Source: Lactobacillales bacterium | GTDB taxonomy: Bacteria; Bacillota_I; Bacilli_A; RF39; UBA660 | Assembly (NCBI GenBank): GCA_015059545.1 | Contig: SVAG01000006.1 | Coordinates: 723 to 64,722 of the forward strand | DNA length: 64,000 bases | Direction of reading: 5' to 3' | Made by a program: the position numbers and the translations under genes | The notes under the pieces: model-generated | The model's database searches: none | Told to the model about the DNA's origin: nothing | Seen by the model: only the letters and a program-made list of their open reading frames with translations | Shown here: positions 2,074 through 21,977 of the stretch, one piece after another | How positions within the stretch are numbered: the stretch's first letter is position 1 | Layout of the letters: every line of letters begins with the position of its first letter

Positions 2074-2075
2074 AA

Positions 2076-2104
2076 TACCATAATTAAATGGTATTTTTAT
2101 TTTA
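2076..2104 (+). terminator. Rho-independent terminator
   Basis: ataccat-aattaa-atggtat hairpin followed by a T-run. Confidence 0.7.
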
Positions 2105-2156
2105 ATAATTGTAAAAAATAATGAAATATATTATAATATACTCTATGGGTGGTTAT

Positions 2157-2948: not shown

Positions 2949-3748
2949 CAATAGAAAATCTATATTTTAAATATCCAGAACAAGATTATATATTAAGTAA
3001 TGTTAATTTGATAATTAAATCAAATATAATAACAGGTATTATAGGACCAAATGGAAGTGGAAAAACAACATTAATAGAAATAATAGATGGATTATTAAAA
3101 CCAGTAAAAGGTATAGTTAAATACAATAAAGTGGAAAAAATAAATCCTAAAGATATTGGATATATATTTCAAAATTCTAAGAATCAATTCTTTTCTAAAA
3201 CAGTAAAAGAAGAATTAGAATTAGGAGCTAAAATTAATAATTATAAATTAGATGTTTTAGATAAAAGAGTATTAGATGTATTAAAAATAGTTAAATTAGA
3301 TAAAGAAATATTAGATAAAAATCCTTTAACTTTAAGTAATAGTGAAGCTAAAAAGATTGCTATCGCATCTATTCTTATGTATAATCCAAAACTAATAATA
3401 TTAGATGAACCAACATTGAATTTAGATGATAAGTCTAAAGATGAATTTATCAAACTTATAAAAATGTTAAAAAATAGATATAATAAGACAATAATAATAA
3501 TATCACATGATATAGATTTATTGCATAAAATAGTTGATAATGTAGTTTTATTAAATGAAGGAAAAATAGTATTAGAAGGTAATAAATATGATGTATTTAA
3601 AGATTCAAAAACATTGAAAAAATATGGATTATTACCTCCTAAAGTAATTATGTTTTCAAATAAAGTATTAAATAAAAAAGGTATTAAATTAGGTTATAGA
3701 GATGAAATAAATGATTTAATAAAGGATATATATAGAAATGTTTACTAA
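2939..3748 (+). CDS. ecfA2: ECF transporter ATPase subunit EcfA2
   Basis: Walker A GPNGSGKTTL. It is the second ABC ATPase and overlaps the ecfA1 stop. Synteny is conserved. Confidence 0.8.
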   Translation: MEITIENLYFKYPEQDYILSNVNLIIKSNIITGIIGPNGSGKTTLIEIIDGLLKPVKGIVKYNKVEKINPKDIGYIFQNSKNQFFSKTVKEELELGAKINNYKLDVLDKRVLDVLKIVKLDKEILDKNPLTLSNSEAKKIAIASILMYNPKLIILDEPTLNLDDKSKDEFIKLIKMLKNRYNKTIIIISHDIDLLHKIVDNVVLLNEGKIVLEGNKYDVFKDSKTLKKYGLLPPKVIMFSNKVLNKKGIKLGYRDEINDLIKDIYRNVY

Positions 3749-4475
3749 TATAACAATAGGAAAATATATATATAAAGAATCAATCATACATAAAATTCAT
3801 CCTATAATTAAAATAATAATGTTATTATTTATTATCTTTTTATCATTAATATCAAGTTATAAAGAAAATATTATTTTATTAGCATATGTATTATTAATTT
3901 CAATATTAACAAAAATAAATATAAAAACATATTTAAAAAATATATATGGATTAAGATATCTTATAATATCAATATTATTTATTAATTTAATATTTAATGT
4001 TAGTGTTTTAAATAGTATAAATTCTATAGAAAAATTAATTATCATATTTATATATTCATCAATATTGATGTATACAACAACTATAAATGAAATTAATTTA
4101 GCATTCAATAAATTATTATCACCATTAAAAAGATTAACTTTTGATGTAGATAATATAAGTTTAATACTAACTATTTCAATTAAATTTATAACAACTATAT
4201 TTGAAGAAGTAGATATATTATTTAAAGCTTTTAAAAGTAGAGGATATAAATTTAATGGAAGTGTTAAAGATAGAATAAATAAAGTTAAAAACTTTTTAAG
4301 TACATTATTTTATTTATTACTTAAAAAATCAGATGATATAGGAACTATATTAGAAATAAAAAATTATAATTTAAAAAAGATAGTTAAAAGAAATAAAAGA
4401 AAAATTAAAATAAAAGAGTATTTAATATTAGTTATAAATATAATTTTATTAATTATTATTAAGAAGGTGGTTTAA
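3738..4475 (+). CDS. ecfT: ECF transporter transmembrane subunit EcfT
   Basis: A polytopic hydrophobic protein of 245 aa immediately downstream of ecfA1/ecfA2, in the conserved Firmicute gene order. Confidence 0.7.
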   Translation: MFTNITIGKYIYKESIIHKIHPIIKIIMLLFIIFLSLISSYKENIILLAYVLLISILTKINIKTYLKNIYGLRYLIISILFINLIFNVSVLNSINSIEKLIIIFIYSSILMYTTTINEINLAFNKLLSPLKRLTFDVDNISLILTISIKFITTIFEEVDILFKAFKSRGYKFNGSVKDRINKVKNFLSTLFYLLLKKSDDIGTILEIKNYNLKKIVKRNKRKIKIKEYLILVINIILLIIIKKVV

Positions 4476-8146: not shown

Positions 8147-8177
8147 TATTAAAACATATATTTTATTAGGTGATAAA

Positions 8178-8837
8178 ATGCTTAAATATAAAATATATGT
8201 TTTTTTATTTTTTATAATAGGGGCTCTTAGTATAAATATAGCTTATGCTAGTAACAATAATTTAGAATTGTTTGGTAAAGTAATATATTTAGATGCTGGA
8301 CATGGAGGAGTTGATTCAGGAGCTACTTATAAAAATATAAAAGAAAAAGATATTAATTTAGAAATATGTTTGAAATTAGAAGAAGAATTAACTAAAAGAG
8401 GAGCAATTGTATATCAAACAAGATATGGTGATTATGATTTATCTCTTCCAAATACTATTAATAGAAAAAGAAGTGATTTATCAAGAAGAAGTAATGTTAT
8501 AAACAGAGCTAATCCTGATTTATTTATATCAATTCATTTAAATGCAGAATCAACTGGTATTTGGAGAGGACCTCAAGTATTTTATAATGACAATAATGAA
8601 GATAATGAAATTATTGCTAAATTATTTCAAAAAGAATTAAATAAATCATTAAAGGGTAATAGAGATTATAAAAAAGATAATGGTTTATATTTACAAAAAA
8701 GAGTAAAAGTACCAGGTGTATTAATAGAAGTAGGTTTTTTAAGTAATAATAATGATAGATATTTACTTAAAAATAAAGAATATCAAACTAAAGTATCTAG
8801 AATTATTACTAATAGTATAATCTATTATTTTAAATAG
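8178..8837 (+). CDS. cwlD: Germination-specific N-acetylmuramoyl-L-alanine amidase CwlD (Amidase_3)
   Basis: LDAGHGGVDSGA amidase_3 motif, an N-terminal TM helix, about 220 aa, and the conserved rpsI-(ybaJ)-cwlD synteny. The ORF-track start at 8088 is an upstream extension. AGGTGA precedes 8178. Confidence 0.75.
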   Translation: MLKYKIYVFLFFIIGALSINIAYASNNNLELFGKVIYLDAGHGGVDSGATYKNIKEKDINLEICLKLEEELTKRGAIVYQTRYGDYDLSLPNTINRKRSDLSRRSNVINRANPDLFISIHLNAESTGIWRGPQVFYNDNNEDNEIIAKLFQKELNKSLKGNRDYKKDNGLYLQKRVKVPGVLIEVGFLSNNNDRYLLKNKEYQTKVSRIITNSIIYYFK

Positions 8838-8903
8838 AAATTCATAAAAACTTCACAAATTAAAAATATATTATGTTATAATGTTTATAGTAGGAGGTTT
8901 TAT

Positions 8904-9830
8904 ATGAATAAGATATTCAAAACTCTTGATCAACAAATTGAAATATTAAAATCAAGAAACCTTATTATAAATGATGAAGAAAGTACTAAAGATATATTAC
9001 TTAGAGAAAACTATTTCTTTATAAATGGATATCGTCATATGTTTTTAGATAGTGAAAGAAGTAGAAATTTTTTAGAAGGAACAACATTTGAAGAATTATA
9101 TGCTACATTTTTATTCGATAGAGATGTAAGAAATATAATGTTTAAACATTTACTTATAGTTGAAAATAATTTCAAATCGATTATAAGTTATCAATTATCT
9201 AAAAAATATGGGTTTAAAGAAAAAGATTACTTGGATCCAAAAAACTTTACACAAGATAGTTTAAAATCAAGACATGTTCATGATATTTTAAATAAAATGA
9301 GAAGACAAATTAGAGTTAATGGTAGACAGCATACTGCAACTCTTCACTATTTAAGTAATTATGGATATATTCCTATGTGGATCTTAGTAAAAGTTTTATC
9401 ATTTGGAATAATTGCAGAATTATATGACATTTTAAAATATGAAGATCAAATGACTATTGCAGATTTATATCATTTAGATCCAGATACATTATCAACATAT
9501 CTTCATTTACTTGCAAATTTTAGAAATCTATGTGCTCATGAAGATATTTTATACGATCATAGAACACAAAAAGAAATACCAGATAATAAATATCATTATT
9601 TATTAGATATTGAAATGAAAGATGATCATTATATATATGGAAAAAATGATTTATTTGCAGTAGTAATTATGTTAAAAGAATTATTAACTGAACAAGAATT
9701 TAATGAATTTATTTCAGAATTAGGATATGAAATAGATTTGTTAGACGGAAAAATTAATGTAATTCCAACTAATATAATTTTAAATTGTATTGGTTTTCCA
9801 AATAATTGGCGAGATATAAATAAAGTATAG
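8904..9830 (+). CDS. Abi-family abortive-infection protein, Abi_2/AbiD-AbiF-like
   Basis: N-terminal LDQQIEILKSRNLIINDEE..LLRENYFFINGY is characteristic of Abi_2 (PF07751). 308 aa. Confidence 0.6.
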   Translation: MNKIFKTLDQQIEILKSRNLIINDEESTKDILLRENYFFINGYRHMFLDSERSRNFLEGTTFEELYATFLFDRDVRNIMFKHLLIVENNFKSIISYQLSKKYGFKEKDYLDPKNFTQDSLKSRHVHDILNKMRRQIRVNGRQHTATLHYLSNYGYIPMWILVKVLSFGIIAELYDILKYEDQMTIADLYHLDPDTLSTYLHLLANFRNLCAHEDILYDHRTQKEIPDNKYHYLLDIEMKDDHYIYGKNDLFAVVIMLKELLTEQEFNEFISELGYEIDLLDGKINVIPTNIILNCIGFPNNWRDINKV

Positions 9831-9838
9831 GAGGATAC

Positions 9839-10930
9839 ATGAAAAATAAATTAAATTATTTGATAGGTATTATTATTTCGTTATTTGTAGGATGTATGTG
9901 TACATTGATAGTTTTAAATAATTTTAATTTATTAGGTAGTAATAAAAAAGAAATAATAGAAAAAACCATAAATGAAGTTAACGTAACTGAAACAGATACA
10001 CTTAAAAATTCTATTGATAAAGTTTATGATGCTGTTGTAGTTATACAAGGATATGAGAATGGTAAATTAAGTAGTACAGGTACAGGTTTTTATTATAAAA
10101 AAGATTCTAAAAGAGGTTATATAATAACTAATCATCATGTTATAGAAGATAGCGATTTAATTAAAGTAACAAATACTTCTAATGTTGAAAGTGAAGCTAC
10201 CTTGCTTGGAAGTGATGAATATTTAGATATAGCTATATTGTCTGTTGATGCAAAGGATGTTATTAAAGTAGCTAAATTAGGTGATACTTCTAAAGTTAAT
10301 GTTGGTGATACTGTATTTACAGTAGGATCTCCTTTAGGTATTAAATATATGGGAACAGTAACAAAAGGAATTTTATCTGGTAAAAATAGACAAGTAACAG
10401 TTAGTGTTTCTAGTAATAAATTTATTATGGATGTCTTACAAACAGATGCAGCTATAAACCCTGGTAATAGTGGAGGACCTCTTTTAAACATTAATGGTGA
10501 AGTTATAGGAGTTACATCTTTAAAATTAGTACAAGATGAAATAGAAGGAATGGGTTTTGCTTTACCAATTGAATCGGTAAAAAATTCATTAGAAAGTTTA
10601 GAAAATGGTAAAGAAATTAACAGACCTGTATTCGGAGTTCAATTGCTAGATGTAGAAAATAAGTCTATGCTTAGAAGATATGGTATAGAGTTAAGTGATA
10701 AAATAAATAACGGAGCAATTATAATTAAAATAGAAAAAAATACATCTGCTTCTGAATCAGAATTAAAAGTTGGTGACATTATAGTTAAAATTAATGATGA
10801 TAAAGTAAAAGATTCTGCACATTTTAGATATTGTTTATATAAATATAGTATTGGAGATACAATTAAAGTAACTTACAATAGAAATGGTAAAGAAAATACT
10901 ATAAGTGTAAAATTAACTGATAAATCTTAA
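9839..10930 (+). CDS. htrA: HtrA/DegP-family trypsin-like serine protease with a PDZ domain
   Basis: N-terminal TM helix, an ITNHHV His region, DAAINPGNSGGPLLN catalytic Ser, and a C-terminal PDZ-like region. Confidence 0.85.
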   Translation: MKNKLNYLIGIIISLFVGCMCTLIVLNNFNLLGSNKKEIIEKTINEVNVTETDTLKNSIDKVYDAVVVIQGYENGKLSSTGTGFYYKKDSKRGYIITNHHVIEDSDLIKVTNTSNVESEATLLGSDEYLDIAILSVDAKDVIKVAKLGDTSKVNVGDTVFTVGSPLGIKYMGTVTKGILSGKNRQVTVSVSSNKFIMDVLQTDAAINPGNSGGPLLNINGEVIGVTSLKLVQDEIEGMGFALPIESVKNSLESLENGKEINRPVFGVQLLDVENKSMLRRYGIELSDKINNGAIIIKIEKNTSASESELKVGDIIVKINDDKVKDSAHFRYCLYKYSIGDTIKVTYNRNGKENTISVKLTDKS

Positions 10931-10957: not shown

Positions 10958-11152
10958 TTCCACAATATAAAATATGTATATATAATTAATTATTACAGAA
11001 AATAAATATTATAATAATATTTTAAATTTTATAAATTATATTTGATAAAAATGTCTTAAAATGTAAAATTAAATGTAAATTAAATTAATTTTGATTGACT
11101 AAATAAAAATACATATGATATAATCGTATTAATGATAGGAGGTTTATACAAT

Positions 11153-11665
11153 ATGGAAAAGAAAAAGAATTTTGTAATCGGTACTTTACTTGCTGCAATC
11201 GTTTTAATGTCAGTAGGTTACGCAGCATTAGCTCAAGTATTAACTATTAACGGTACTGCTAACATTAGTGCTGATTGGGATGTTGAAATCACAGGAATTA
11301 CAGAAGGTACTTTAACAGGAGCAACTACACAAACTGTTACTTCAGATGCTACTTCTGCAACATTCAATGTTGATTTAGCTTATCCAGGTGCAACTGCTAC
11401 TTACGAAATAGATATTGAAAACAAAGGAACAATCGATGCTGTATTAGAAAGTATTACAGGTGTAGATGCTGCAAACACTGCACTTCCAACTGAAGTTCAA
11501 TATACAGTAACAGGAGTTGCTGAAGGAGATACTTTAGATGCTAAAGCAACTACAAAAGCAATTGTTACAGTTACTTGGGTAGCTAGCGCTGACAATACTG
11601 ATACTGTTCCAACAACAACATCAAAAACTGCAACAATTAACTTAAATTATGTTCAAAATACATAA
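11153..11665 (+). CDS. Secreted TasA/camelysin-like beta-rich protein (paralog 1) with a putative SipW-type signal
   Basis: MEKKKNFVIGTLLAAIVLMSVGYAALA|QVLTINGTANI, with Ala-x-Ala before Gln. The body is T/V/A-rich and ends ..ATINLNYVQNT. AGGAGG RBS 10 nt upstream. The ORF-track start at 11132 is an extension. Confidence 0.6.
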   Translation: MEKKKNFVIGTLLAAIVLMSVGYAALAQVLTINGTANISADWDVEITGITEGTLTGATTQTVTSDATSATFNVDLAYPGATATYEIDIENKGTIDAVLESITGVDAANTALPTEVQYTVTGVAEGDTLDAKATTKAIVTVTWVASADNTDTVPTTTSKTATINLNYVQNT

Positions 11666-11670
11666 TAAAA

Positions 11671-11699
11671 AATAAGGGACAGTAATGTCCTTATTTTTG
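11671..11699 (+). terminator. Rho-independent terminator
   Basis: aagggaca-gtaa-tgtcctt hairpin followed by a T-run. Confidence 0.7.
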
Positions 11700-11713
11700 T
11701 TTGGAGGTAAAAG

Positions 11714-12874
11714 ATGAGAAGACGAAGAAGAAGAAAAGAATTAAGTTTAACTAAAATAATTGTTCTTTTTGTTGTATGTACTTTAACTTTTAGTGTTGGA
11801 TATTCACTTTTATCTCAACAATTATCAGTAGAAGGTACAGTAAACCTTTTGTATGAAAAAGAACTAACTTGTAAGGAATATGTAACGGATGAGTTAAAAT
11901 TAACTTATGATAATAAAATGTTATGGCATAATGCAGGTTTAAATTATATGCAAATTGATATAACATTAACTAATTTAACACAAGAAGAAATGACTGACTG
12001 GAAAGTAATGATAAAGTTTATTAGTGATATTGAAATATCGGGTTCTTGGGCAGGTAATTATACAGAAAGTGATAATAAAGTTACAATAACAGGATTAGAT
12101 TGGAATAAAACATTAGCACCTGGTGGACAAACTACTTTTGGATTTCAAGTAAGTACACCTGATGAAGAAATTCATTTAAGCTCAATTTATCTTAATGGTG
12201 ATTTAGCAATACCTGGAGAATCATGTAGTAATGTTTCGGATGGAGACAACACAGGCGGAGATAACACAGGTGGAGATAACACAGGCGGAGACAACACAGG
12301 TGGAGATAACACAGGCGGAGACAACACAGGCGGAGACAACACAGGTGGAGATAACACAGGTGGAGATAACACAGGTGGAGATAATACAGGCGGAGATAAC
12401 ACAGGTGGAGATAACACAGGTGGAGATAATACAGGCGGAGATAACACAGGCGGAGATAACACAGGCGGAGACAACACAGGCGGAGATAACACAGGTGGAG
12501 ATAACACAGGTGGAGATAACACAGGTGGAGATAACACAGGTGGAGGAACATTTACTCCAGAAATAACATCTTCAAATGTAGATGTAAAAGTTACGAATAC
12601 AACTTCATGGGGAACTGAAGGGAATTATACTTATCAATATGATATTACTGTTACAAATAATTCGGATGTCAATATAGATGGATGGAGTTTTCAATTTGAG
12701 ATTCCTGATGGTGCTTCTATGGGAGATTATTGGCAATGTGAATATATAAATGCGGATGGAGTTGTTACAATATTATCCAATACAAATACTGCAAAATTAG
12801 AAGTTGGACAATCTGCTCAAATAGGATTCCACATAAAGGTTCCAACAAACACTTATGTACTTAAAGTAAGATAG
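11714..12874 (+). CDS. Secreted protein with the same SVGY..LSQ signal motif, two CBM2-like beta-sandwich domains and a (GGDNT)x~20 linker
   Basis: [35 protein letters not shown]. The first domain has ...[19 protein letters not shown], as in CBM2. The second domain has W..GW.FQFE..W...[10 protein letters not shown]. Confidence 0.65.
12240..12545 (+). repeat. Array of about 20 copies of a 15-bp repeat, GGAGA(C/T)AACACAGG(C/T), encoding (GGDNT)n
   Basis: Direct reading of the sequence. Two unit variants alternate irregularly. The array is in frame, a multiple of 3. Confidence 0.95.
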
Positions 12875-12883
12875 GAGTTAATT

Positions 12884-14068
12884 ATGACAAAAATTAGTTT
12901 AAGAACAATATTAATATATTTAATTGCAATTCTTTATACTGTATTTGTTTCAATATTATTTATTGATGATATTGTTTCAAGTTACAATTTATTGATAAAT
13001 CCTATCTTTTGGATAGCTTTATTTGGTTTATCATTATATTTATTTAAAGATAGTAAAACTCGAATAAAATTAAAAAAAGATAAGGTTCAAACTATATTTA
13101 TAATAATCCTTATGTACTTGATTTTCTATTTTTTATCAGGGTTATTCTTTGGATACTCTAGAAGCCCATATGCCCATTCAATAATTGGGATAATCAAAAA
13201 TTTATGGTCATTTGTAATAATAATATTTTTTCAAGAATATGTTAGACATATATTGGCAAATAATTGTTCTAAAAGAAAACTTTTCTATGTATTAACAACT
13301 ATACTATTTATATTAATTGAAATAAATTTTTATAATTTTGAAAACAATTTTGTATCAGGAGAGTCAGGTTTTAAATATATCAGTTCAATTTTATTACCAA
13401 TAATAGTTAGAAATATATTATTTACTTATTTAACACTTGAATGTGGTTTTGAGGCTGTATTAGCATATAGAATGCCAATTATGTTTGCTAATATAATATT
13501 ACCAATATTTCCTGATTTAAACTGGTTTATTATAGCTTTATATGAATTAGTTTTACCATTTGTATGTTTTATTGTTATAAATTATATGCATACAAAAAAA
13601 CAAGAAAGAATATCAAGAAGAAGAATAAGAAAGCAAAATCCAATTAAAAATGTACCATTTATATTAGTATTATTCTTATTTGTTGGGTTTGTTGCTGGTT
13701 TCTTTAAATATATGCCTATTGCAGTTATGTCTAATAGTATGTCTAATGTAATAAATAGGGGAGATATGGTTGTAGTAGAAAAATTAAGTAAAAAAGAAGT
13801 TAAAAATTTGAAGAAACAAGATATTATTGAATATAATTTAGATGGAGATGTTATTATCCATAGAATTATAGAAGTTCAAAAGCAAAAGGATGGATCTGTT
13901 AGATTTATAACTATGGGTGATAATAATACAGCTCCAGATAATAAACCTGTAAAACAAGATCAGGTTATGGGAAAAGTAAAATTTAAAGTTTCTTATATAG
14001 GATATCCAGTTGTGTATTTAAATGACTTCTTCCAAAAAACTAAACCAGATGTTGAAATGGGAAAATAA
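12884..14068 (+). CDS. sipW: Fusion protein of an N-terminal polytopic membrane domain (about 8 TM, 290 aa) and a C-terminal SipW/Sec11-type (archaeal-type) signal peptidase I domain
   Basis: The C-terminal domain has AVMSNSMSNVINRGDMVVVEK (SxSMxP..GD box), VIIHRII (His box) and FITMGDNNTAPD (GDNN box), as in TIGR02228. The preceding 290 aa are multi-pass hydrophobic. Confidence 0.7.
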   Translation: MTKISLRTILIYLIAILYTVFVSILFIDDIVSSYNLLINPIFWIALFGLSLYLFKDSKTRIKLKKDKVQTIFIIILMYLIFYFLSGLFFGYSRSPYAHSIIGIIKNLWSFVIIIFFQEYVRHILANNCSKRKLFYVLTTILFILIEINFYNFENNFVSGESGFKYISSILLPIIVRNILFTYLTLECGFEAVLAYRMPIMFANIILPIFPDLNWFIIALYELVLPFVCFIVINYMHTKKQERISRRRIRKQNPIKNVPFILVLFLFVGFVAGFFKYMPIAVMSNSMSNVINRGDMVVVEKLSKKEVKNLKKQDIIEYNLDGDVIIHRIIEVQKQKDGSVRFITMGDNNTAPDNKPVKQDQVMGKVKFKVSYIGYPVVYLNDFFQKTKPDVEMGK

Positions 14069-14075
14069 ATATGTA

Positions 14076-14102
14076 AAATGCAGTGTAAACTGCATTTTTT
14101 TT
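14076..14102 (+). terminator. Rho-independent terminator
   Basis: aaatgcag-tgtaaac-ctgcattt hairpin followed by a T8 run. Confidence 0.75.
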
Positions 14103-14159
14103 GGTTGTATCTAATATATTTGATGTGATATACTAATAACAGAATAGGAGAGTTTAGAT

Positions 14160-14672
14160 ATGACAGATAAAAAAAGAAATATACTTATAGTAGCTTTATT
14201 TGTAGCAATAGTGGCAATGTCTGTTGGTTATGCAGCATTAGCACAAGTTTTAAATATTAATGGTACAGCAAATATAGCGGCAGAATGGAATGTAGAAATA
14301 ACTGATATTCAAGTTAAAGAACAAAACGGTGCAACTGATAGAGTTAATCCATCATATACAAGTAAAACAGCAAGTTTTGATGTAAATTTAGCTTATCCAG
14401 GAGCAAGTTCTACATATATAGTAACAGTAAAAAATAGTGGAACTATAAATGCAAAATTATCTGAAATTACAGGTATAGATGCAGCAAATTTATCTGATCC
14501 AACTGCAGTACAATATACTGTTACAAAAGTGGACACTAATGATGAATTAAATGTAGGTGAAACTAAAACATTTGAAGTAAAAGTTGAATGGTTAAGTACA
14601 GATGATGGTACAAATATAACAGCTTCAAATAAAACAGCAACAATTAACTTTAATTATGTACAAAATCAATAA
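14160..14672 (+). CDS. Secreted TasA/camelysin-like beta-rich protein (paralog 2) with a putative SipW-type signal
   Basis: MTDKKRNILIVALFVAIVAMSVGYAALA|QVLNINGTANI and ...ATINFNYVQNQ C-terminus. It aligns end to end with the 11153..11665 product. Confidence 0.6.
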   Translation: MTDKKRNILIVALFVAIVAMSVGYAALAQVLNINGTANIAAEWNVEITDIQVKEQNGATDRVNPSYTSKTASFDVNLAYPGASSTYIVTVKNSGTINAKLSEITGIDAANLSDPTAVQYTVTKVDTNDELNVGETKTFEVKVEWLSTDDGTNITASNKTATINFNYVQNQ

Positions 14673-14701: not shown

Positions 14702-15766
14702 ATGAGTAACAATATGACTTTTCCAAAAAGAAAAGTTCTTAAAAAATGGGCTCGTTATTCTTTATTAGGAATAATAATAACATTTTTTATATCTTCTATT
14801 GTTATTATATTAACTAGTTTTAATAAACCTGATAAAAACGAAGACGTATTATTATACTCATATAATGTAAATCAGGATTTAGATTATAAAGTAAATTTAT
14901 ATGACAATAGTTATATAGAATCTAGTTATTTAGGGAAAGATGATACTTATATTTCAGATTTAATAAAAGAAATACAAATAGATTATAAGTATAAATATGC
15001 TGGTTCAAAAGTTGTTCCATTAAATTATACTTATGATGTAGTAGCGACTATAAATGGTGAATATAGTCTAGAAGAAGAAGATTCTAAAGTATGGACTAAA
15101 GAATATAAATTGGTTCAAAATAGAAATGGTAAAATTACAGACAAGACATCTATAAATATAACTGAACCAGTAAGTTTAAATTTTAGTTATTATAATAATG
15201 TAGTATCAAATTTTAGAAAAGAACTACGTTTACCAATAAAAGCCTCATTAATAGTAGTATTTAAGATAAACGTTACAGGTGAAGTATCAGGACAAAAAAT
15301 AAATGATACAAAACAAATGACTTTATCATTTCCTTTAAATCAGCAAGCATTTAAAATTACTGAAAAATATGAGGAAAACTTTAATAATAGTATAAAGCCA
15401 CCTGTAGAAAAGAAAGAAAAAGTTAATTCTAGAAAATTAATATGTGGAATTATATTATTATCAACAGCTATATTTATATTTATATTATTCTTTAGAGAAA
15501 TATTTAATATTCCAAGAAAAAATAAATATACAATTCAATTAAATAAAATATTAAAAGAATATGGAGATATCATAATCGAAGTAATAAATCCAGTAAGTGA
15601 ATTTGAAATGGATATTGTAGAAGTCAAAAACTTCAATGAAATGATAGACTTAGAAGAAGAACTTAGGGTTCCAATAATGTTCTATGAAACAATAGAATAT
15701 TTAGAAGGAGAATTTACATTAGTTCATAATAATATATTATATAAATTTGTTTTAAGAAATGAATAG
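14702..15766 (+). CDS. Bitopic membrane protein of unknown function (354 aa), a possible fibre-assembly accessory
   Basis: TM helix at residues 20-40, a central beta-rich extracytoplasmic region, a second TM at about 240-260, and an acidic C-terminal cytoplasmic domain. Its position in the locus is the basis for the accessory suggestion. Confidence 0.45.
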   Translation: MSNNMTFPKRKVLKKWARYSLLGIIITFFISSIVIILTSFNKPDKNEDVLLYSYNVNQDLDYKVNLYDNSYIESSYLGKDDTYISDLIKEIQIDYKYKYAGSKVVPLNYTYDVVATINGEYSLEEEDSKVWTKEYKLVQNRNGKITDKTSINITEPVSLNFSYYNNVVSNFRKELRLPIKASLIVVFKINVTGEVSGQKINDTKQMTLSFPLNQQAFKITEKYEENFNNSIKPPVEKKEKVNSRKLICGIILLSTAIFIFILFFREIFNIPRKNKYTIQLNKILKEYGDIIIEVINPVSEFEMDIVEVKNFNEMIDLEEELRVPIMFYETIEYLEGEFTLVHNNILYKFVLRNE

Positions 15767-15831: not shown

Positions 15832-17187
15832 ATGGCAAAGATAGTTATTGATGCTGGACATGGAGGAGATGATCCTGGTGCTAGTGGAAATGGTATTATA
15901 GAAAAAGATTTAGTTTTAGACATTTCTAATTATATGTATGATAGATTTAGAGAATTAGGTATACCTGTTGCTTTAACTAGATCTACAGATATTACATTAA
16001 ATCCAACAGATAGAACAAATAAAATTCTAAATCAATTTGGTAATACAAGTGATGTAATTGTTATTTCCAATCATATAAATGCAGGTGGAGGAGATGGTGC
16101 TGAAGTAATATATGCGCTTAGAGATAATAATAATTTATCTAATTTAATATTAGAAAATTTTGAAGAAGTAGGTCAAAATGTAAGAAAAGCATATCAGAGA
16201 AGATTACCTAGTGATACTTCAAAAGATTATTATTTTATACATAGAAATACAGGAAATACGGAACCTATTATAGTAGAATATGGATTTTTAGATAGCACAG
16301 GTGATGATGTAAATCAATTAAAAAATAATTGGAGAAATTTAGCAGAAGCTGTTGTTAAATCAGTAGCAGAGTATACAAATACATCATATGATAAAGGGTT
16401 AGGAACTACTTATACAGTAAAAAGTGGAGATACATTATGGAGTATAGCTAAAAAATTTAATATGACTGTAAATGAATTAAAAGAAATAAATAATTTGACA
16501 AGTAATACACTTAGAATAGGCCAAATATTGAAGATAAATGAGCAACTTCCATCATCAGATGAAAATACATATATAGTAAAAAGAGGGGATACATTATATG
16601 GAATTGCTAATAAATATGGTGTTACAGTTAATGAAATAAAGAATTTAAATAATTTAATGAATAGTTCACTTAGTATAGGTCAAATTCTTAAAATTCCAGT
16701 AAATGAAGACAATATGGAAGATTATTTAATTTACACAGTAAAAAATGGAGATACATTATACGGAATAGCAAGAACATATAATATAACACCAAGTGAAATT
16801 ATTTCTTATAATAATTTAAATAGTACGGTATTAAATATAGGACAAAATTTAAAAATACCATTTAAAAATATTTCTGACGATGAACAAAATATAGAATATA
16901 TTATTTATACAGTAAAAAGCGGAGACTCTTTATATAGTATAGCTAGAAAATACAATACATCTGTTAATGAGATAATGAATTTAAATAATTTAACAAGTAA
17001 TTTATTAAGCATAGGTCAAACTTTAAAAATTCCTGTAGAAGAATCAAAAGATATAGTTTATACAGTAAAGAGTGGAGATAATCTTTATAGTATAGCAAGA
17101 AAATATAATACAACTGTTGCTAATATAAAAAATAAAAATAATTTAACAACTAATTTACTTAGTATAGGACAAAAATTAATAATATAA
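15832..17187 (+). CDS. N-acetylmuramoyl-L-alanine amidase (Amidase_3) with five C-terminal LysM repeats
   Basis: IDAGHGGDDPGA motif, then 5x YTVKxGDTLYxIAxKYN..Nx(L/I)..IGQxLKIP LysM units. Confidence 0.85.
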   Translation: MAKIVIDAGHGGDDPGASGNGIIEKDLVLDISNYMYDRFRELGIPVALTRSTDITLNPTDRTNKILNQFGNTSDVIVISNHINAGGGDGAEVIYALRDNNNLSNLILENFEEVGQNVRKAYQRRLPSDTSKDYYFIHRNTGNTEPIIVEYGFLDSTGDDVNQLKNNWRNLAEAVVKSVAEYTNTSYDKGLGTTYTVKSGDTLWSIAKKFNMTVNELKEINNLTSNTLRIGQILKINEQLPSSDENTYIVKRGDTLYGIANKYGVTVNEIKNLNNLMNSSLSIGQILKIPVNEDNMEDYLIYTVKNGDTLYGIARTYNITPSEIISYNNLNSTVLNIGQNLKIPFKNISDDEQNIEYIIYTVKSGDSLYSIARKYNTSVNEIMNLNNLTSNLLSIGQTLKIPVEESKDIVYTVKSGDNLYSIARKYNTTVANIKNKNNLTTNLLSIGQKLII

Positions 17188-17216
17188 AAGCACTTAATCA
17201 AGTGCTTTTTATTTTT
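17186..17216. terminator. Bidirectional terminator between convergent genes
   Basis: aaaagcactt-aatca-agtgctttt hairpin with A- and T-runs on both sides. Confidence 0.7.
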
Positions 17217-20118
17217 CTAATTTATATATATAATGTCTTGCTGTTGTGTTTTCAACTTTTTTTGAAAAACCTAAAAATATTTTATTATTAATAATTTTTA
17301 TACCTTCTGGCTCCCATATTTCTTTATTAGTAGGATTACCTAATTTATAACGATATGCAATCTTTTCGCCTTGAAGCGAATAAATTGAAAGGAATGGTCC
17401 TATGCTGTAATTATTGTTAGTAGTAGGGTTTCCTTCTAGTATATATATATAATTTCCATTAACTGTAAACCCTTGCCAACTTATATTGTTAGTATTATCT
17501 GGTAATGAAAATTTAAAAGCTATTTTAGGTGAACTTGAATTTATGAAATCATCTAAATTATATACTTTATAAGTTGTATCATGCCTTATAACTAAAATTC
17601 GATTATTATTATCAATGGCTGCTTGTCCTTGATAATTGTAAGTTTTAACATTTAATTGATCTTTAGTTATTGTTTTACAATTATTCCCATTTGGACTAAA
17701 TAAATTATTTGTTAATTTAATTCTACATATTTTTGTTGATTTATATTCTCCAGGTGCATCTTTTTTTTCTATTCCATCACAACCAACCCATATAAATGTA
17801 TTGTTATTAGTTTTTTCAAAATCAATATTACCTAAGTGTCCAAATTTAGGAAGATTTATACATGAAACTATTGAGTTATTATTTGCATCTATTTTATTAA
17901 TATAAGCATCTCTTTGTGTAATGTATAAGTAGTTATCATCCTTAATCCATGATTGCATGTTTCTAGCTTTATTTGATAATGTTAACTTTGATTTATATAC
18001 TTTTTTAGTTGTTGTAGGATTAATATAATTTCCTGCAACTTTAACGCTTACTTTTGTTTTTGCTTTGAAATTTCCATCTTTAGTTTTAGCTGTAATAGTA
18101 GCTGTACCTATTTTTTTAGCTGTTATAATACCTTTTGCATCAACAGAAACAATTTCTGGGTCATTACTAGACCAAATAATTGTTTTATTAGTAGCATCAT
18201 TAGGTTTAATGGTAGCAATAATTTTTTTAGTATTAGTTTTATTAATAGTAATATTACTAGTATTTAATTTAATTCCAGTAACAGGTGTTTTAACAGTTAT
18301 AGTAGATATTATTTTATAATTATTTTCTTTAGTGGCTGCTGTTATATTTGTTATACCGTCACTAATAGCTTTTATATTACCATTTTGATCAACAGTAGCA
18401 ACTTTCGGATTACTACTAGACCAAATAATTGTTTTATTAGTGGCATCACTAGGTTTAATAGTAGCAGTAATTTTTGAATTTTGACCTTTATTTAAATTAA
18501 TCTTCTTTTTATCAATTTGTATTCCAGTAACAGGTACATTTACTATAACTCTACAAGATGTTTTAAAGTTTCCGTCTTTAGAAGAAATATAAATATATGT
18601 TATTCCTCCAGAAACAGCAGTAACTTTTCCGTTTTGATCGACAGTAGCGATTTTTGGATTACTACTAGACCAAGTTACACTTTTATTTGATGCATATTCA
18701 GGATATATATCATAAGTTAAATTAAAACTCTTATTTTTATTTAGTGTTAAACTTGTTTTATTTAATTTAATATTTGTAACTAAATTTTTTACTGTAACAT
18801 TTATGGATGTTTTAAATTTATTATCTTCTGATTTTACTATTATAGTTGTGGAACCATTAGAAATACCTTTAATATTACCATTTTGATCAACAGTAGCGAT
18901 TTTTTGATTGCTACTAGACCAAATAATTGTTTTATTAGTAGCATCACTTGGGGTAAAAATGACATTAACTTTTTTTATCTCATTTTTTCCTAATTGTAGG
19001 TTAGTAACATTTGTTTTAATTCCATTTAATGGGACATAAACATTAACTTTGCAAGTTGCTTTTGTATTTCCATCTTTAGAAGAAGCAGTTATAATTGAAT
19101 TACCACTAGAAATAGCAGTAACTTTTCCGTTTTGATCAACAGTAGCGATTTTAGAATTACTACTAGACCAAATAATATCTTTATTTCCAGCATCATTAGG
19201 TTTTATAGTATAAGTTAAATTAAATGTATTATTCTTTTTTAAAGAAATATTTGTTTTATTTAAAGTTATATTAGTTACTAGTTTATTAACTATTATTTTA
19301 ATAGAAGTTTTAAATTTATTATCTTTAGTTTTAACTGTAATAGTTGTAGTTCCATTAGAAATAGCAGTAACTTTTCCGTTTTGATCAACTGTAGCGATTT
19401 TAGAATTACTACTGGACCAATAAAAATCTTTATTGTCTGCATCATTAGGTGTTATAATCAAGTTTAATTTTTTTGTAGAATCATTATTCATATATATATT
19501 TTTTTCTTTAAATTTAATCTCTTTTATATGTGATGTAACTTTTATATTACATTTATCTTTATAGCCACCATCTTTAGAAGTAACAGTGATAATTGTATTT
19601 CCTTTTTGTAATGCAGTAACTTTTCCATTTTGATCAACAGTAGCAACTTTTGGGTTACTACTAGACCAGTAAAAATCTTTATTAGTGGCGTTATTAGGTT
19701 CAATATTAACTTTTAAATTAATAGAATCTGATTTATTTAAAGTTTTATTATTATAATTTAGTTTTACGTTTTTAATATATATATATTGTTTTTCATTTGT
19801 TTCTTTTTCCCATTTTGCTGTTAAAGTAGTGTTTTTTGTTATTTGAATATCATTCTCTATTTTGTTATTATTTTCATCATACCATCCTAAAAATATGTAG
19901 TTTTCTTTTTGAGGAGATATTAAATTTTTTAAATTACTATTACAATCTATTTTTTTATTAGGAATATTAAAATCACTATTACTATTAAAGACTATTAAAC
20001 ATTCATTTTTAGTTGAAGAAAATTTATTTGTTGTAAAAATAAGTATTCCAGTAAATAAAAATACAAATATAAGAATCCTATAATCTATTATTTTTAAAAT
20101 TTTCTTCATAAATATCAT
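17209..20118 (-). CDS. Large surface protein with about 8 tandem bacterial Ig-like (Big_2) domains and a C-terminal non-Ig domain of about 280 aa
   Basis: N-terminal TM/signal. Repeated ..ATNKDFYWSSSNPKVATVDQNGKVTA...TIITV.. Big_2 units. The C-terminal domain is rich in N/Y/W. Confidence 0.75.
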   Translation of the reverse strand: MIFMKKILKIIDYRILIFVFLFTGILIFTTNKFSSTKNECLIVFNSNSDFNIPNKKIDCNSNLKNLISPQKENYIFLGWYDENNNKIENDIQITKNTTLTAKWEKETNEKQYIYIKNVKLNYNNKTLNKSDSINLKVNIEPNNATNKDFYWSSSNPKVATVDQNGKVTALQKGNTIITVTSKDGGYKDKCNIKVTSHIKEIKFKEKNIYMNNDSTKKLNLIITPNDADNKDFYWSSSNSKIATVDQNGKVTAISNGTTTITVKTKDNKFKTSIKIIVNKLVTNITLNKTNISLKKNNTFNLTYTIKPNDAGNKDIIWSSSNSKIATVDQNGKVTAISSGNSIITASSKDGNTKATCKVNVYVPLNGIKTNVTNLQLGKNEIKKVNVIFTPSDATNKTIIWSSSNQKIATVDQNGNIKGISNGSTTIIVKSEDNKFKTSINVTVKNLVTNIKLNKTSLTLNKNKSFNLTYDIYPEYASNKSVTWSSSNPKIATVDQNGKVTAVSGGITYIYISSKDGNFKTSCRVIVNVPVTGIQIDKKKINLNKGQNSKITATIKPSDATNKTIIWSSSNPKVATVDQNGNIKAISDGITNITAATKENNYKIISTITVKTPVTGIKLNTSNITINKTNTKKIIATIKPNDATNKTIIWSSNDPEIVSVDAKGIITAKKIGTATITAKTKDGNFKAKTKVSVKVAGNYINPTTTKKVYKSKLTLSNKARNMQSWIKDDNYLYITQRDAYINKIDANNNSIVSCINLPKFGHLGNIDFEKTNNNTFIWVGCDGIEKKDAPGEYKSTKICRIKLTNNLFSPNGNNCKTITKDQLNVKTYNYQGQAAIDNNNRILVIRHDTTYKVYNLDDFINSSSPKIAFKFSLPDNTNNISWQGFTVNGNYIYILEGNPTTNNNYSIGPFLSIYSLQGEKIAYRYKLGNPTNKEIWEPEGIKIINNKIFLGFSKKVENTTARHYIYKLEK

Positions 20119-20171
20119 TCCTATTCCTATTATAAATAATTATAGCACATAATAAAAAAAACATTAATATA

Positions 20172-20597
20172 TTAATGTATTTCTTTACATATCCCTGGAT
20201 CAGGTATATAGAAACAATGACTTTTATATCTTCCTGATAATTTTTGATCATACCAAGTATTTGTACATGCTACACCTGTTTTAGGAGCATAAAACCATAA
20301 TGAATTAGTAGCTGGATGGTAATATTCTCCTCTTATTATTCTGTCGGCTAAATTTTTTTCTGTAGTTGTAGGATTACCATAAAATAAAGAACCTTTTGTT
20401 CCAGAAAATTGATTTGGTTGATATATAACATCTGATATCGTGGAAACATTTTTAAAAGTTAAACAGTTTGCAAGTGCTCTATTAACTACAACATTACCAA
20501 CCATAAGCATTCCAAGGTTACCTTCTCCTACAGCTTCAGCTCTCATTATTCTAGCAAGTAAATCTCTTTCTTTACTTGTATATTTTATAATTGACAT
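20172..20597 (-). CDS. SleB/CwlJ-family cell-wall hydrolase (Hydrolase_2 domain), CwlJ-like
   Basis: LLARIMRAEAVGEG..GMLMVGNVVVNR matches the Hydrolase_2/SleB catalytic-domain signature. 141 aa. Confidence 0.7.
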   Translation of the reverse strand: MSIIKYTSKERDLLARIMRAEAVGEGNLGMLMVGNVVVNRALANCLTFKNVSTISDVIYQPNQFSGTKGSLFYGNPTTTEKNLADRIIRGEYYHPATNSLWFYAPKTGVACTNTWYDQKLSGRYKSHCFYIPDPGICKEIH

Positions 20598-20657
20598 ATA
20601 ATCACCTATTTAATTATATGAATTTACATTAATATAGTGAATATATTTAATTAAACC

Positions 20658-20686
20658 TTGAAATTATTATTATTTCATGTTATAAT
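20658..20686 (+). promoter_or_regulatory. Consensus sigma-A promoter (TTGAAA, 17 nt, TATAAT) for tRNA-Trp
   Basis: TTGAAA at 20658-63, a 17-nt spacer, and TATAAT at 20681-86, 14 nt before the tRNA 5' end. Confidence 0.7.
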
Positions 20687-20700
20687 CAATTTGTCCGTTT

Positions 20701-20774
20701 AGGGGTGTAGTTAAATGGTATAATAACGGTCTCCAAAACCGCTGTTGGGAGTTCGATTCTCTCCACCCCTGCCA
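20701..20774 (+). tRNA. tRNA-Trp (anticodon CCA)
   Basis: AGGGGTG/CACCCCT acceptor stem, CTCCAAA anticodon loop, TTCGATT T-loop, encoded 3' CCA. 74 nt. Confidence 0.9.
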
Positions 20775-20918
20775 TTTAGAATAATTCGAACAAATATGTT
20801 CGTTTCCGTAAAACTTGATATAAAAATATCAAGTTTTTTAATATTTTAATAAAAACTTGACAAAAATAAAAAATGTGATAAAATATATTACACTTTTTAA
20901 GAAGAGGGGGAATTTTAT

Positions 20919-21977
20919 ATGGAAAACGTGGTACTTAAAAAGGAAAATGGAGTAGTTATTGAATCTGTTCGTAAGACTTTAGTTAGTAAAACACCTTATT
21001 TAGGAAAAAATGAAAAATGTTTTTCTGATGCTGTAGAAAATATTAATAAACCTAAAAATAATGATGTTATGGCTATCAAAAAGTCAATTTATACAATGGT
21101 ACAAACTATATCAAAAGCAGAAGGTGGTTCCGAAGTAATTGCTGAATTTTATAATAGATTAAAATTAGCACAAACTCGTGAAGAACTATTAGCCATTGTT
21201 AATTTATTATGCAAAGGTTATGATCAAGTCTTAAAGGGTATGAAACCAGTTAAATCAAGAGAAAAAAATAAAGAAGAAATAATAGTTGACATAAAAATTA
21301 ATACAAAATTTAACGAACAATTAAAAACTAATCCTGATCTTGTTATTTCAATAGCAACTAAAAAGATTATTTCTAATTATTATTTAAATAAAATCTTATC
21401 TTCAGGAAAAGAAAGAGTTAATGAATTAGAAAACTTAAAAATGAGTGGTGTATCTATTGATGAAATTCTAGAATTTTTCGGTGAAAGTTTTAATGAAACT
21501 TCGATTTCAAATGGAATAGAAAAATTATCTAAAAAAATATTTTCAGACACAATAGATGTTGTATCTGATCAATTACAAACACATTTATGTTGGGAACATT
21601 GTGTTAATGCATCAGTATTACAATGTCCAAAAATAGCGGATCAAGTAAAACAAAAGATCGGAGAATATGATTTTATAACAGATGGTTATCAAATATTTGA
21701 TGCAAATGGAAAAGTTGATCAATTTATTGTAACAGGTTGTGATAATTACGTTAAAGCAGAACCAAAAGTTCTTACATCAGAAGAAAAGAAAAGATTAAAA
21801 ATAGCAAAAGAAAGTTTAAGAATGGCATATTTTGATGCATCTTCATTAGAAGAAGCTTATCTTATCCAAGCAGATTTAGAAGCAAGAGGTCAAATTCATA
21901 GTATTAGGGGAAGAAGACCTGATGAAAAAACAATTAAACTTATAAAAGCAAGAAGAAATTCAAAAAATAATTATTAA
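20919..21977 (+). CDS. Hypothetical protein (352 aa)
   Basis: Long ORF with a GAGGGGG RBS. No recognisable motif. Confidence 0.5.
   Translation: MENVVLKKENGVVIESVRKTLVSKTPYLGKNEKCFSDAVENINKPKNNDVMAIKKSIYTMVQTISKAEGGSEVIAEFYNRLKLAQTREELLAIVNLLCKGYDQVLKGMKPVKSREKNKEEIIVDIKINTKFNEQLKTNPDLVISIATKKIISNYYLNKILSSGKERVNELENLKMSGVSIDEILEFFGESFNETSISNGIEKLSKKIFSDTIDVVSDQLQTHLCWEHCVNASVLQCPKIADQVKQKIGEYDFITDGYQIFDANGKVDQFIVTGCDNYVKAEPKVLTSEEKKRLKIAKESLRMAYFDASSLEEAYLIQADLEARGQIHSIRGRRPDEKTIKLIKARRNSKNNY

Follow-up and report, generated by a model that had tools for sequence, protein, structure and literature searches.

A signal-peptide and proposed donor-strand module shared by three proteins at a probable AbpX-like fiber locus in uncultured gut Bacilli

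The window, by which we mean the whole 64-kb stretch of DNA analyzed, contains a locus that encodes two small paralogous proteins (paralogs 1 and 2), a CBM protein, a signal peptidase fused to an N-terminal membrane domain, and a DUF5305 membrane protein (Table 1). Paralog 1 begins at the ATG at 11153, which has an AGGAGG ribosome-binding site ahead of it at ∼11141; the ATG upstream at 11132 is not the start. The hairpin that follows paralog 1 may attenuate transcription, leading to high expression of the subunit and lower expression of the accessory genes. Pfam analysis of six flanking ORFs (8175-10930 and 15832-21977) revealed no LPXTG or SLH anchor, sortase, or c-di-GMP gene.

Table 1. Positions of genes, protein segments, and candidate transcription signals at the locus
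Feature	Positions	Strand	Basis
Promoter-like site, TTGACT-18-(TG)TATAAT, upstream of paralog 1	11095..11124	+	11/12 consensus matches, extended −10; consensus match only
Paralog 1, 170 aa, candidate major fiber subunit	11153..11665	+	ORF, 348 homologues, hhalign vs AbpX, AF2
S20-V-G-Y-A24, signal-peptide c-region, proposed peptidase-recognition part	11210..11224	+	−3/−1 small throughout, Y near-invariant, aligned to AbpX T-Y-A|Q; predicted cut after A24
A25-L-A-Q-V-L-T-I-N-G-T-A-N-I-S-A-D41, proposed N-terminal donor strand	11225..11275	+	AbpX alignment, unpaired in AF2 monomer
Terminator-like hairpin and T-run after paralog 1	11675..11692	+	Pattern match only
CBM protein, 386 aa, candidate tip adhesin	11714..12874	+	ORF, Pfam domains, motif at 11798
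15-bp tandem repeat, 20.3 copies, encoding (GGDNT)n linker of CBM protein	12241..12545	+	
Fused peptidase, N-terminal 8-TM domain (aa 1-245), CPBP/Rce1/SpdC-like fold (predicted)	12884..13618	+	
Fused peptidase, Sec11/SipW-type signal peptidase I part (aa 253-394), TM anchor and catalytic domain	13640..14068	+	TIGR02228, invariant residues, SEC11A/C matches; SipA, SEC11A, LepB likeness
Terminator-like hairpin after peptidase gene	14075..14098	+	
Paralog 2, 170 aa, candidate minor or alternative subunit	14160..14672	+	ORF, S21-V-G-Y-A25|A-L-A-Q motif
DUF5305 membrane protein, 354 aa, proposed peptidase accessory subunit	14702..15766	+	PF17231 4.4e-22, hydropathy, peptidase linkage, literature

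Paralog 1, the CBM protein, and paralog 2 share an N-terminal layout: a basic N terminus, a hydrophobic core, and the motif S-V-G-Y-(A/S)-x-L-x-Q-x-L-x-(I/V)-x-G-T. A six-frame regular-expression scan of the window found the motif at these three places only, and the N termini read exactly as quoted in the preliminary description, which had drawn attention to the motif. The same description had claimed a shared C-terminal end for the small paralogs, quoted as KTATINLNYVQNT and KTATINFNYVQNQ; both match the proteins and fall on a strongly conserved strand, K-T-A-T-I-x-L-N-Y-x-Q, in which K158, A160, I162, and Q168 are invariant. The two paralogs are clear duplicates (54% identity); paralog 2 was found in loci L001 and L002 and is absent from L003 and L073. 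Pfam and NCBIfam scans of the small paralogs gave no match, a PDB sequence search with paralog 1 returned chance-level matches only, none of its 348 homologues is named, and a literature search with the motif strings retrieved nothing relevant.

Conservation of the motif far exceeds that expected by chance or from recent paralogy. A profile search, suggested earlier for the N termini and carried out with the small-paralog family, yielded 8,133 clusters at 50% identity. G-Y-A is near-invariant and Q is not. Among 119 close homologues, the Tyr and the following Ala are invariant, and Gly precedes the Tyr in 116. In a wider set of 144 representatives (mutual identity ≤50%), the three positions are G 128/A 12/S 4, Y 137/F 7, and A 131/S 11/G 2; downstream, L(+7) is present in 136, I(+9) in 127, and G(+11) in 132. 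The consensus first proposed needs loosening at two positions: its Gln is present in just 72 of the 144 representatives (T 33, S 29), with Glu in some orthologues, and the residue before the Gln is small in most sequences, not in all.

Paralog 1 comprises a predicted signal peptide (residues 1-24), a putative donor-strand extension (25-41), and a beta-sandwich core (42-170). Its AF2 model (pLDDT 87.6) has a helix at residues 2-26, coil at 27-43, and strands at 44-168; the beta-sandwich is confident, and residues 27-43 are unpaired in the monomer, with lower pLDDT. The mature proteins are acidic, with a pI of 4.05-4.31 (4.05 for paralog 1) and a D+E content of 11.6-15.2%.

In the CBM protein, the motif-bearing signal peptide (S27-V-G-Y-S31|) leads directly to CBM2, followed by a (GGDNT)20 linker and a CBM49-like domain; Pfam places CBM_2 at residues 79-163 (2.3e-24) and CBM49 at 291-372 (7.7e-11). 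CBM_2 proteins with the motif occupy the same position in many loci, and other motif-bearing cargo also carries adhesin-like domains (Big_2, BspA-type LRR, Flg_new). Tat export of the CBM protein, considered for its RRRRRRK stretch, was rejected, as the Arg run is absent from orthologues.

The C-terminal part of the fused peptidase scores 84.8 bits against TIGR02228 (cutoff, 51.85) and matches SEC11A/C with an E value of ∼1e-18, compared with ∼0.1 for bacterial LepB. Its catalytic residues are S285 (SNSM), H326, and D346 (GDNN); across 60 homologues, S283, S285, M286, H326, R327, G345, D346, N348, and D352 are invariant. By these sequence measures it is an ER/archaeal-type (Sec11/SipW) signal peptidase I. 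It falls below the cutoff of the SipW equivalog model NF046067 (67 bits versus 190). AF2 models the whole protein with 8 + 1 TM helices plus a short C-terminal helix, and the confident model predicts a CPBP/Rce1-like fold for the N-terminal 8-TM domain. This domain differs from the CPBP/Abi proteases (Rce1) and the pseudoprotease SpdC/LyrA in that it matches no Pfam family, PF02517 included; the CPBP motifs EExxxR, FxxxH, and HxxxN are not found in it, with only E118 and R121 kept, recalling motif 1. Canonical CPBP catalysis is unlikely because residues 1-245 contain no conserved His. SipW is not known to have a CPBP-like domain. The DUF5305 protein has two hydrophobic segments (residues 20-38 and 246-264), and the literature describes DUF5305 proteins as signal peptidase I accessories (TafG in Tafi loci).

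The preliminary description had also suggested testing whether the motif co-occurs with the fused peptidase, and it does. Both the peptidase and DUF5305 lie within 10 kb of the motif, arranged in a constant order on one strand, in 51 of 67 motif-selected loci and in 27 of the 30 that have full flanks; DUF5305 adjoins the peptidase in 54 of the 67. Conversely, eight loci selected by peptidase all contained DUF5305 next to it, and five contained a motif-bearing pilin; in the other three, no cargo was found within 7 kb. Motif-bearing cargo is sometimes remote from the peptidase. Three peptidase loci sit between spoVIF and spoIVA; a connection with sporulation was entertained on account of this placement, which we simply note.

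AbpX of the archaeon Pyrodictium abyssi is a solved donor-strand fiber of the TasA superfamily; in its cryo-EM structure, W2, E4, L6, L8, A10, and I12 are buried in the groove (Sleutel et al., bioRxiv 10.64898/2026.01.04.697558). Members of the AbpX-like clade polymerize through donor-strand complementation in a Ca2+-dependent manner and with no chaperone. Just five close homologues of AbpX were retrieved by a word-index search. The small-paralog family aligned with the AbpX family by hhalign (94.9%, E = 4.7e-8, 152 columns), and it did so nearly as well when the signal peptide, or the signal peptide and donor strand, were removed (93%, E = 4e-7). When the family profile was run against the PDB, AbpX was the top match, albeit a weak one (E = 0.24), and AbpX scored 19 to 30 bits against the family HMM, so that HMMER alone was not significant. 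On the alignment of their core domains, the small paralogs are remote homologues of AbpX. L2, Q4, L6, I8, G10, and A12 of the mature paralogs pair, in phase, with the six buried AbpX residues; paralog 1 has hydrophobic residues at mature positions 2, 6, 8, 12, and 14, with Q4 in the place of AbpX E4. Mature position 2 is L in 93 and F in 45 of the 144 representatives, and Q and E are exchanged at position 4 among orthologues. An amphipathic donor strand would thus directly follow the signal peptidase I site, as in AbpX.

As to where the precursors are cut, G-Y-(A/S)| obeys the −3/−1 rule in all sequences of three sets (119/119 close homologues, 144/144 representatives, and 35/35 second-gene proteins), and both hhalign and HMMER align G-Y-A with AbpX T-Y-A. 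The AbpX site itself (T-Y-A|Q, giving an N-terminal Gln) is a software prediction, and S-V-G|Y obeys the rule equally well as G-Y-A|A. The possibility of a class III (type IV prepilin) signal was dismissed because the G|F-T-L-x-E motif is missing and the cut would fall after, not before, the hydrophobic core.

The preliminary description had instead taken the whole S-V-G-Y-A-A-L-A-Q...G-T stretch to be the recognition signal of the fused peptidase, cut at A-L-A|Q and defining a new cognate-signal class. That site does obey the AxA rule in both small paralogs, its −1 residue is A/S/T in 113 of the 119 close homologues, and it would leave an N-terminal Gln, as predicted for AbpX; the strong peptidase linkage and the failure of the motif to match TIGR04088 fit this reading as well. 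However, the −1 residue is R or Q in the other 6 of 119, Q/N/R or similar in at least 16 of 144, and small in just 17 of 35 second-gene proteins, whose −3 residue is often Tyr or Leu. Because relatives often have Q, K, R, N, or Y ahead of the Gln, and the Gln itself is so variable, cleavage at A-L-A|Q is disfavored and a cut at G-Y-A|A seems more likely. With the alignment anchored on the Gln, moreover, the hydrophobic periodicity and the AbpX donor strand are out of phase, but they are in phase when Y-A is the anchor. Beyond G-Y-A the conservation is that of an amphipathic strand, something unneeded in a signal that is cleaved off or merely recognized. We consider this first reading unlikely. 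We would instead divide the motif into M-x-x-G-Y-A, for recognition and cleavage, and A-L-x-Q-x-L-x-I-x-G-T-A-x-I, the proposed donor strand.

Two further readings were weighed. If the N-terminal helix were kept, the proteins would be type II membrane-anchored surface proteins, with a conserved juxtamembrane motif through which they dock with either the CPBP-like domain or DUF5305. The AF2 helix does run through G-Y-A-A-L, the CPBP-like relative SpdC acts by binding its partner's TM helix, and a single-TM jelly-roll protein has been proposed as a membrane anchor in Tafi loci; yet the Sec11-type catalytic residues are invariant in the 60 homologues, small −3/−1 residues are universal, and AbpX and TasA, which are homologues, undergo cleavage and are secreted as fiber proteins, making retention of the helix quite improbable. 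Harder still to credit, and largely refuted, is that these are ordinary Sec signals processed by the housekeeping signal peptidase, whose likeness stems only from a recent local duplication. The two small paralogs are indeed duplicates, but the motif is kept across representatives sharing ≤50% identity, it also precedes unrelated domains (CBM_2, LRR_5) and proteins without Pfam domains, an invariant Tyr at −2 is not typical of generic signal peptides, and a dedicated peptidase adjoins the genes in most loci.

The locus probably encodes an AbpX-like extracellular fiber of the TasA superfamily, assembled by donor-strand complementation, with subunits cut by the peptidase and DUF5305 protein and a CBM tip. 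We infer that each precursor would be exported by means of a Sec-type signal peptide with the c-region M-(S/A/G)-(V/I)-G-Y-(A/S), and that the locus peptidase, with its Sec11/SipW-type and 8-TM CPBP-like parts and probably together with the DUF5305 protein, would cut after G-Y-A. The exposed N terminus, A-(L/F)-x-(Q/E/T/S)-x-L-x-I-x-G-T-(A/S)-x-I, would then insert as an amphipathic strand into the groove left open in the beta-sandwich of the next subunit. The major subunit would be paralog 1, with paralog 2 serving in a minor or alternative role. Since the CBM2/CBM49 protein has the strand and lacks an acceptor beta-sandwich, it could cap just one end, as a donor-only, carbohydrate-binding tip adhesin or nucleator. 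The three proteins would have the motif in common because they use the same peptidase and plug the same groove.

A bolder extension, which we offer tentatively and with some doubt, is that M-x-x-G-Y-A is read within the membrane by the CPBP-like domain acting as a pseudoprotease, and that cleavage is coupled to strand donation into the next subunit while this is still held in the membrane. The peptidase-DUF5305 pair might then be the assembly platform of a sortase-independent Gram-positive pilus that elongates at the base and has exchangeable adhesin tips (CBM2, BspA-type LRR, and others) in thousands of uncultured gut Bacillota lineages.

If the fiber interpretation is correct, a very large unannotated family (the 8,133 clusters, for which there is no Pfam or NCBIfam model) forms sortase-independent donor-strand fibers in gut Firmicutes. 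Cellulose- or chitin-type binding tips in this lineage would suggest that small-genome, uncultured Bacilli attach to dietary fiber or other glycans. The G-Y-A plus donor-strand module would also be a searchable tag for adhesins that join fibers, including those encoded far from the peptidase, and the CPBP-like membrane fold suggests a concrete, testable way in which a "cognate" signal peptidase could choose its substrates, one that may carry over to the AbpX-type many-TM peptidases.

Several known systems resemble this locus. The Tafi pili of haloarchaea (TafE/TafA, TafC tip, TafD peptidase, and TafG, a DUF5305 protein) are alike in their parts list, combining donor-strand pilins and a tip protein with a signal peptidase and a DUF5305 helper, but Tafi pilins are mostly Tat exported.

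TasA-TapA-SipW of B. subtilis, CalY/SipW of B. cereus, and BsaA/SipW of C. perfringens likewise have a dedicated Sec11-type peptidase in the operon and a cleavage that exposes an N-terminal donor strand; the accessory protein TapA carries the same donor strand as TasA. The site position in TasA, T-W-A|A-F-N-D, is equivalent to the proposed G-Y-A|A-L-A-Q. There is no detectable sequence similarity, however. TIGR04088, TIGR04089, and TIGR04090 did not match the N termini of paralog 1, paralog 2, or the CBM protein even at E ≤ 10, while in the same search TasA matched TIGR04088 at 38 bits (cutoff, 19), with weak matches to TIGR04090 and TIGR04089, so the preliminary description was right to set this signal apart from the SipW-cognate one. 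Because hhalign of the family against TasA alone was not significant (8.8%), the link to TasA depends on AbpX and on positional analogy. The TasA locus, as described, includes SipW and TapA only (bioRxiv 10.64898/2026.01.04.697558).

The closest likeness is to AbpX. The core beta-sandwich is homologous, and both proteins are acidic. In each, the signal peptide ends in (small)-Y-A and an amphipathic strand comes next, and the monomer layout of helix, unpaired stretch, and beta-sandwich mirrors that predicted for AbpX. AbpX-type cassettes include minor subunits, a donor-strand-only tip protein, a signal peptidase I of roughly ten TM helices, and DUF5305 (bioRxiv 10.64898/2026.01.04.697558); this locus likewise encodes candidate extra subunits and a candidate tip protein with the proposed donor strand, alongside DUF5305 and a many-TM signal peptidase I. 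The window proteins differ in having Leu and Gln at mature positions 2 and 4, where the AbpX clade has an aromatic residue and an acidic Ca2+ ligand, although some relatives have Phe and Glu; the tip protein here is CBM2/CBM49; and the host belongs to low-GC, uncultured gut Bacilli, outside the bacterial examples listed among AbpX-like loci of Thermoproteota, Bacillota, and Chloroflexota (bioRxiv 10.64898/2026.01.04.697558). Rather than the new signal class first proposed, the architecture is that of TasA and AbpX, with a cassette already reported in that work, and the locus is best read as a known kind of system, described in early 2026, in which TasA/AbpX-type fiber subunits are paired with a dedicated signal peptidase.

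Five co-directional genes occupy 11.1-15.8 kb of the window. The first, paralog 1, starts at ATG 11153, 5' of which lie AGGAGG and a promoter-like sequence close to consensus, with an extended −10 element. A six-frame regular-expression scan found the motif S-V-G-Y-(A/S)-x-L-x-Q-x-L-x-(I/V)-x-G-T exclusively at three sites of the 64-kb window, namely the N-termini of paralog 1, paralog 2 and the carbohydrate-binding module (CBM) protein; these three N-termini, like the C-terminal ends of the two paralogs, read exactly as quoted in the preliminary description. The flanking genes recur at L073 (2716-12736), a locus of a relative with a peptidase of 61% identity, and thus the wider neighborhood is stable in this lineage. 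Farther downstream is a surface protein whose signal peptide is ordinary and lacks the motif; its C-terminal 300 residues have no domain assigned.

Features of the window at and around the locus
Feature	Position	Strand	Length or content
Low-G+C stretch	2001-4000		G+C down to 17% vs 21-29% in rest of window
Upstream flank	8175-10930		Amidase_3, Abi_2, HtrA-like protease
Paralog 1	11153-11665	+	170 aa
CBM2 + CBM49 protein	11714-12874	+	386 aa
Linker repeat in CBM protein	12241-12545		15 bp, 20.3 copies, 92% matches; encodes (GGDNT)20
Signal peptidase	12884-14068	+	394 aa
Paralog 2	14160-14672	+	170 aa
DUF5305 protein	14702-15766	+	
Downstream flank	15832-17187		Amidase_3 with five LysM repeats
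Surface protein	17209-20118	−	969 aa; Listeria-Bacteroides repeat, seven Big_2 domains

Scanning one genome per species for the motif yielded 67 loci, all in metagenome-assembled genomes (MAGs) of uncultured gut or sediment Bacillota. By local BLAST of the ORFs in these loci, the fused peptidase was present in 52 and was joined by DUF5305 in 51; exceptions were mostly at contig ends. Among the 30 loci with full 10-kb flanks, 27 had the peptidase and all 27 also had DUF5305, bearing out the earlier proposal of a specific signal linked to this enzyme. All genes of a locus invariably share one strand and run subunit(s), (CBM protein), peptidase, (subunit), DUF5305, with one to six subunit genes per locus. 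A second motif-bearing gene, encoding 170 to 600 aa and often carrying CBM_2, CBM49 or Big_2, usually directly follows the first.

In the reverse direction, eight loci were chosen via peptidase homologues (38-61% identity): DUF5305 adjoined the peptidase in all eight, a motif-bearing subunit lay ≤7 kb away in five, and the complete cassette of subunit, CBM_2, peptidase and DUF5305 was found in four. At L069 (7001-9295), L071 (7001-9245) and L072 (3078-5321), from one spore-forming lineage, spoVIF and spoIVA flank the peptidase-DUF5305 pair, and no gene up to 7 kb away bears the motif; L070 shares this setting and retains one subunit gene. This pair may have its cargo elsewhere or may act on another substrate. 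MAG JAETPN01 has a single peptidase locus (L048) and four clustered genes for motif proteins (L009); far from both, in a housekeeping region (L068, 10001-11449 and ~17737 onward), are orphan motif-bearing proteins in which a subunit domain is fused to BspA-type LRR. Given such remote cargo and the loci without nearby cargo, cargo and peptidase are usually, not universally, neighbors, an arrangement that resembles a sorting signal and its enzyme. MAG CAKPRZ01 encodes at least five motif proteins of 449 to 623 aa on separate contigs (L055, L056, L057 and L065), with no peptidase within 10 kb; these long proteins carry the version G-I-G-Y-A-A-L-S-Q-V-L-N-I.

The C-terminal part of the peptidase scores above the cutoff of TIGR02228 and below that of the SipW equivalog model, matches human SEC11A/C at E ~1e-18 versus ~0.1 for bacterial LepB, and has invariant S285, H326 and D346; these comparisons assign it to the Sec11/SipW type. 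The 120 homologues listed of 221 clusters (E ≤ 0.001) are 343 to 398 aa long, nearly all 376 to 398, which is consistent with a retained fused architecture. In four loci (L014, L015, L018 and L019) the peptidase is apparently split into a membrane-domain ORF and a separate catalytic ORF of 187 to 216 aa, which could be due to a frameshift or represent a true two-gene form. In the AF2 model (pLDDT 87.2), residues 6-240 contain eight long helices, and the model also has an anchor helix and the catalytic beta domain. Sequence models did not detect the CPBP relation of the membrane domain, and it has no conserved His; the CPBP-like domain is therefore probably noncatalytic. On the model of SpdC, the domain may bind the signal-peptide helix of the substrate.

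A word-indexed search with paralog 1 returned 348 homologue clusters, with no named protein or Pfam domain among them. A family profile built from 70 members and scored against 1.84 billion representatives matched 8,133 proteins at E≤1e-3, of which 4,145 also passed E≤1e-10; many matches are 300 to 870 aa long, with the family domain N-terminal. Residue counts across these homologues show a real and ancient motif, whose best-conserved core is G-Y-A plus the L-x-I-x-G-T periodicity, not the Gln.

Residues at motif positions, numbered relative to Tyr
Position	Close homologues (119)	Representatives ≤50% identical (144)
-1 (G)	116	G 128, A 12, S 4
Tyr	Y 119	Y 137, F 7
+1 (A)	A 119	A 131, S 11, G 2
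+3	L 115	L 93, F 45
+5	Q 115	Q 72, T 33, S 29
+7 (L)	118	136
+9 (I)	117	127
+11 (G)	116	132

The small proteins are relatives of AbpX, a TasA-superfamily protein of Pyrodictium abyssi described in a January 2026 preprint; in its cryo-EM fiber, an N-terminal donor strand (W2, E4, L6, L8, A10, I12) inserts into the next subunit (bioRxiv 10.64898/2026.01.04.697558). We compared the family profile with an AbpX profile (the supplement sequence plus four close homologues) using hhalign. The probability was 94.9% at full length (E 4.7e-8, 152 columns), 93% without the signal peptide, and 93% without signal peptide and donor strand. The relationship is a remote one: AbpX scores only 19 to 30 bits against the family HMM and is the top, nonsignificant match in a PDB sequence search. 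The AF2 model of paralog 1 (pLDDT 87.6) consists of a helix (2-26), an unpaired segment (27-43) and an eight-strand sandwich (44-168), the layout of AbpX monomer predictions; fold searches with it returned generic Ig-like sandwiches only, so structural placement adds no independent evidence. Like AbpX-like proteins, the mature forms are acidic (pI 4.05 to 4.3).

Both hhalign and HMMER place V-G-Y-A↓A-L-A-Q-V-L-T-I-N-G-T-A of paralog 1 on L-T-Y-A↓Q-W-S-E-T-L-S-L-S-A-T-I of AbpX. Numbered from A25, hydrophobic residues fall at 2, 6, 8, 12 and 14, the same register as on the buried side of the AbpX strand, and the conserved Gln aligns with E4, a Ca2+ ligand in AbpX; this register is lost when the alignment is anchored on the Gln. 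We therefore divide the motif in two, and the earlier view of it as a signal throughout gives way to one in which M-x-x-G-Y-A would leave with the signal peptide and the segment after it would form the donor strand. Since fibre assembly cannot explain the invariance of M-x-x-G-Y-A, this part is the leading candidate for what the dedicated peptidase recognizes. Close relatives can have Glu in place of the Gln, as in G-Y-A-A-L-A-E-Q-L (L074, 5575-7004) and T-Y-S-F-F-S-E-Q-L (L073, 6176-6988), indicating Gln/Glu interchange at the putative Ca2+-ligand position; some orthologues combine Glu at mature position 4 with Phe at position 2, the AbpX-type aromatic/acidic pattern.

Cleavage at A-L-A↓Q, as previously proposed, requires a small residue before the Gln, yet this position varies: among close homologues it is A 91, S 18, T 4, R 4 and Q 2 (n = 119), and among representatives S 68, A 42, Q 8, G 6, T 5, N 5, R 3 and others (n = 144). 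It is small in only 17 of 35 second-gene proteins of related loci, the remainder having Q, Y, N, K, H or R, and in many cases Tyr or Leu at −3. In every sequence examined, G-Y-(A/S)↓ places small residues at both −3 and −1, as does (S/A/G/T)-x-G↓Y. We favor a predicted site at G-Y-A↓A because it agrees with the AbpX alignment, in which the AbpX site is itself a software prediction, and with the experimentally known small-aromatic-Ala↓ pattern of TasA.

In the CBM protein, CBM2 begins ~25 residues past the donor strand and is followed by the (GGDNT)20 linker and a CBM49-like domain. Its orthologues are 270 to 321 aa long; linker length thus varies between strains. With no room for an acceptor sandwich, the protein could donate a strand without accepting one and would therefore occupy one chain end only. 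We take it as a candidate tip adhesin, by analogy with the AbpX (bioRxiv 10.64898/2026.01.04.697558) and Tafi papers, which give equivalent genes the tip role; a TapA-like nucleator or anchor is a possible alternative, and TapA shares the TasA donor strand.

The signal was described as distinct from that of TasA, and formally it is, having no match to the TIGR04088 model. It is not new in kind: the locus belongs with fiber systems of the AbpX/TasA type already described. In TasA (G-G-G-T-W-A↓A-F-N-D), the mature protein starts at residue 28 and the donor strand spans 28-38, the same layout of cleavage site and strand that we read here. AbpX-like loci are known in archaea and Bacillota and comprise minor subunits, tip proteins, a ten-TM signal peptidase I and a DUF5305 accessory protein (bioRxiv 10.64898/2026.01.04.697558), the gene set of our locus. 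What goes beyond this literature is the G-Y-A core combined with a position 4 that is not acidic, together with the CPBP-like fold seen for the peptidase membrane domain; the family itself is very large, unannotated and new among the AbpX/TasA-type fiber systems.
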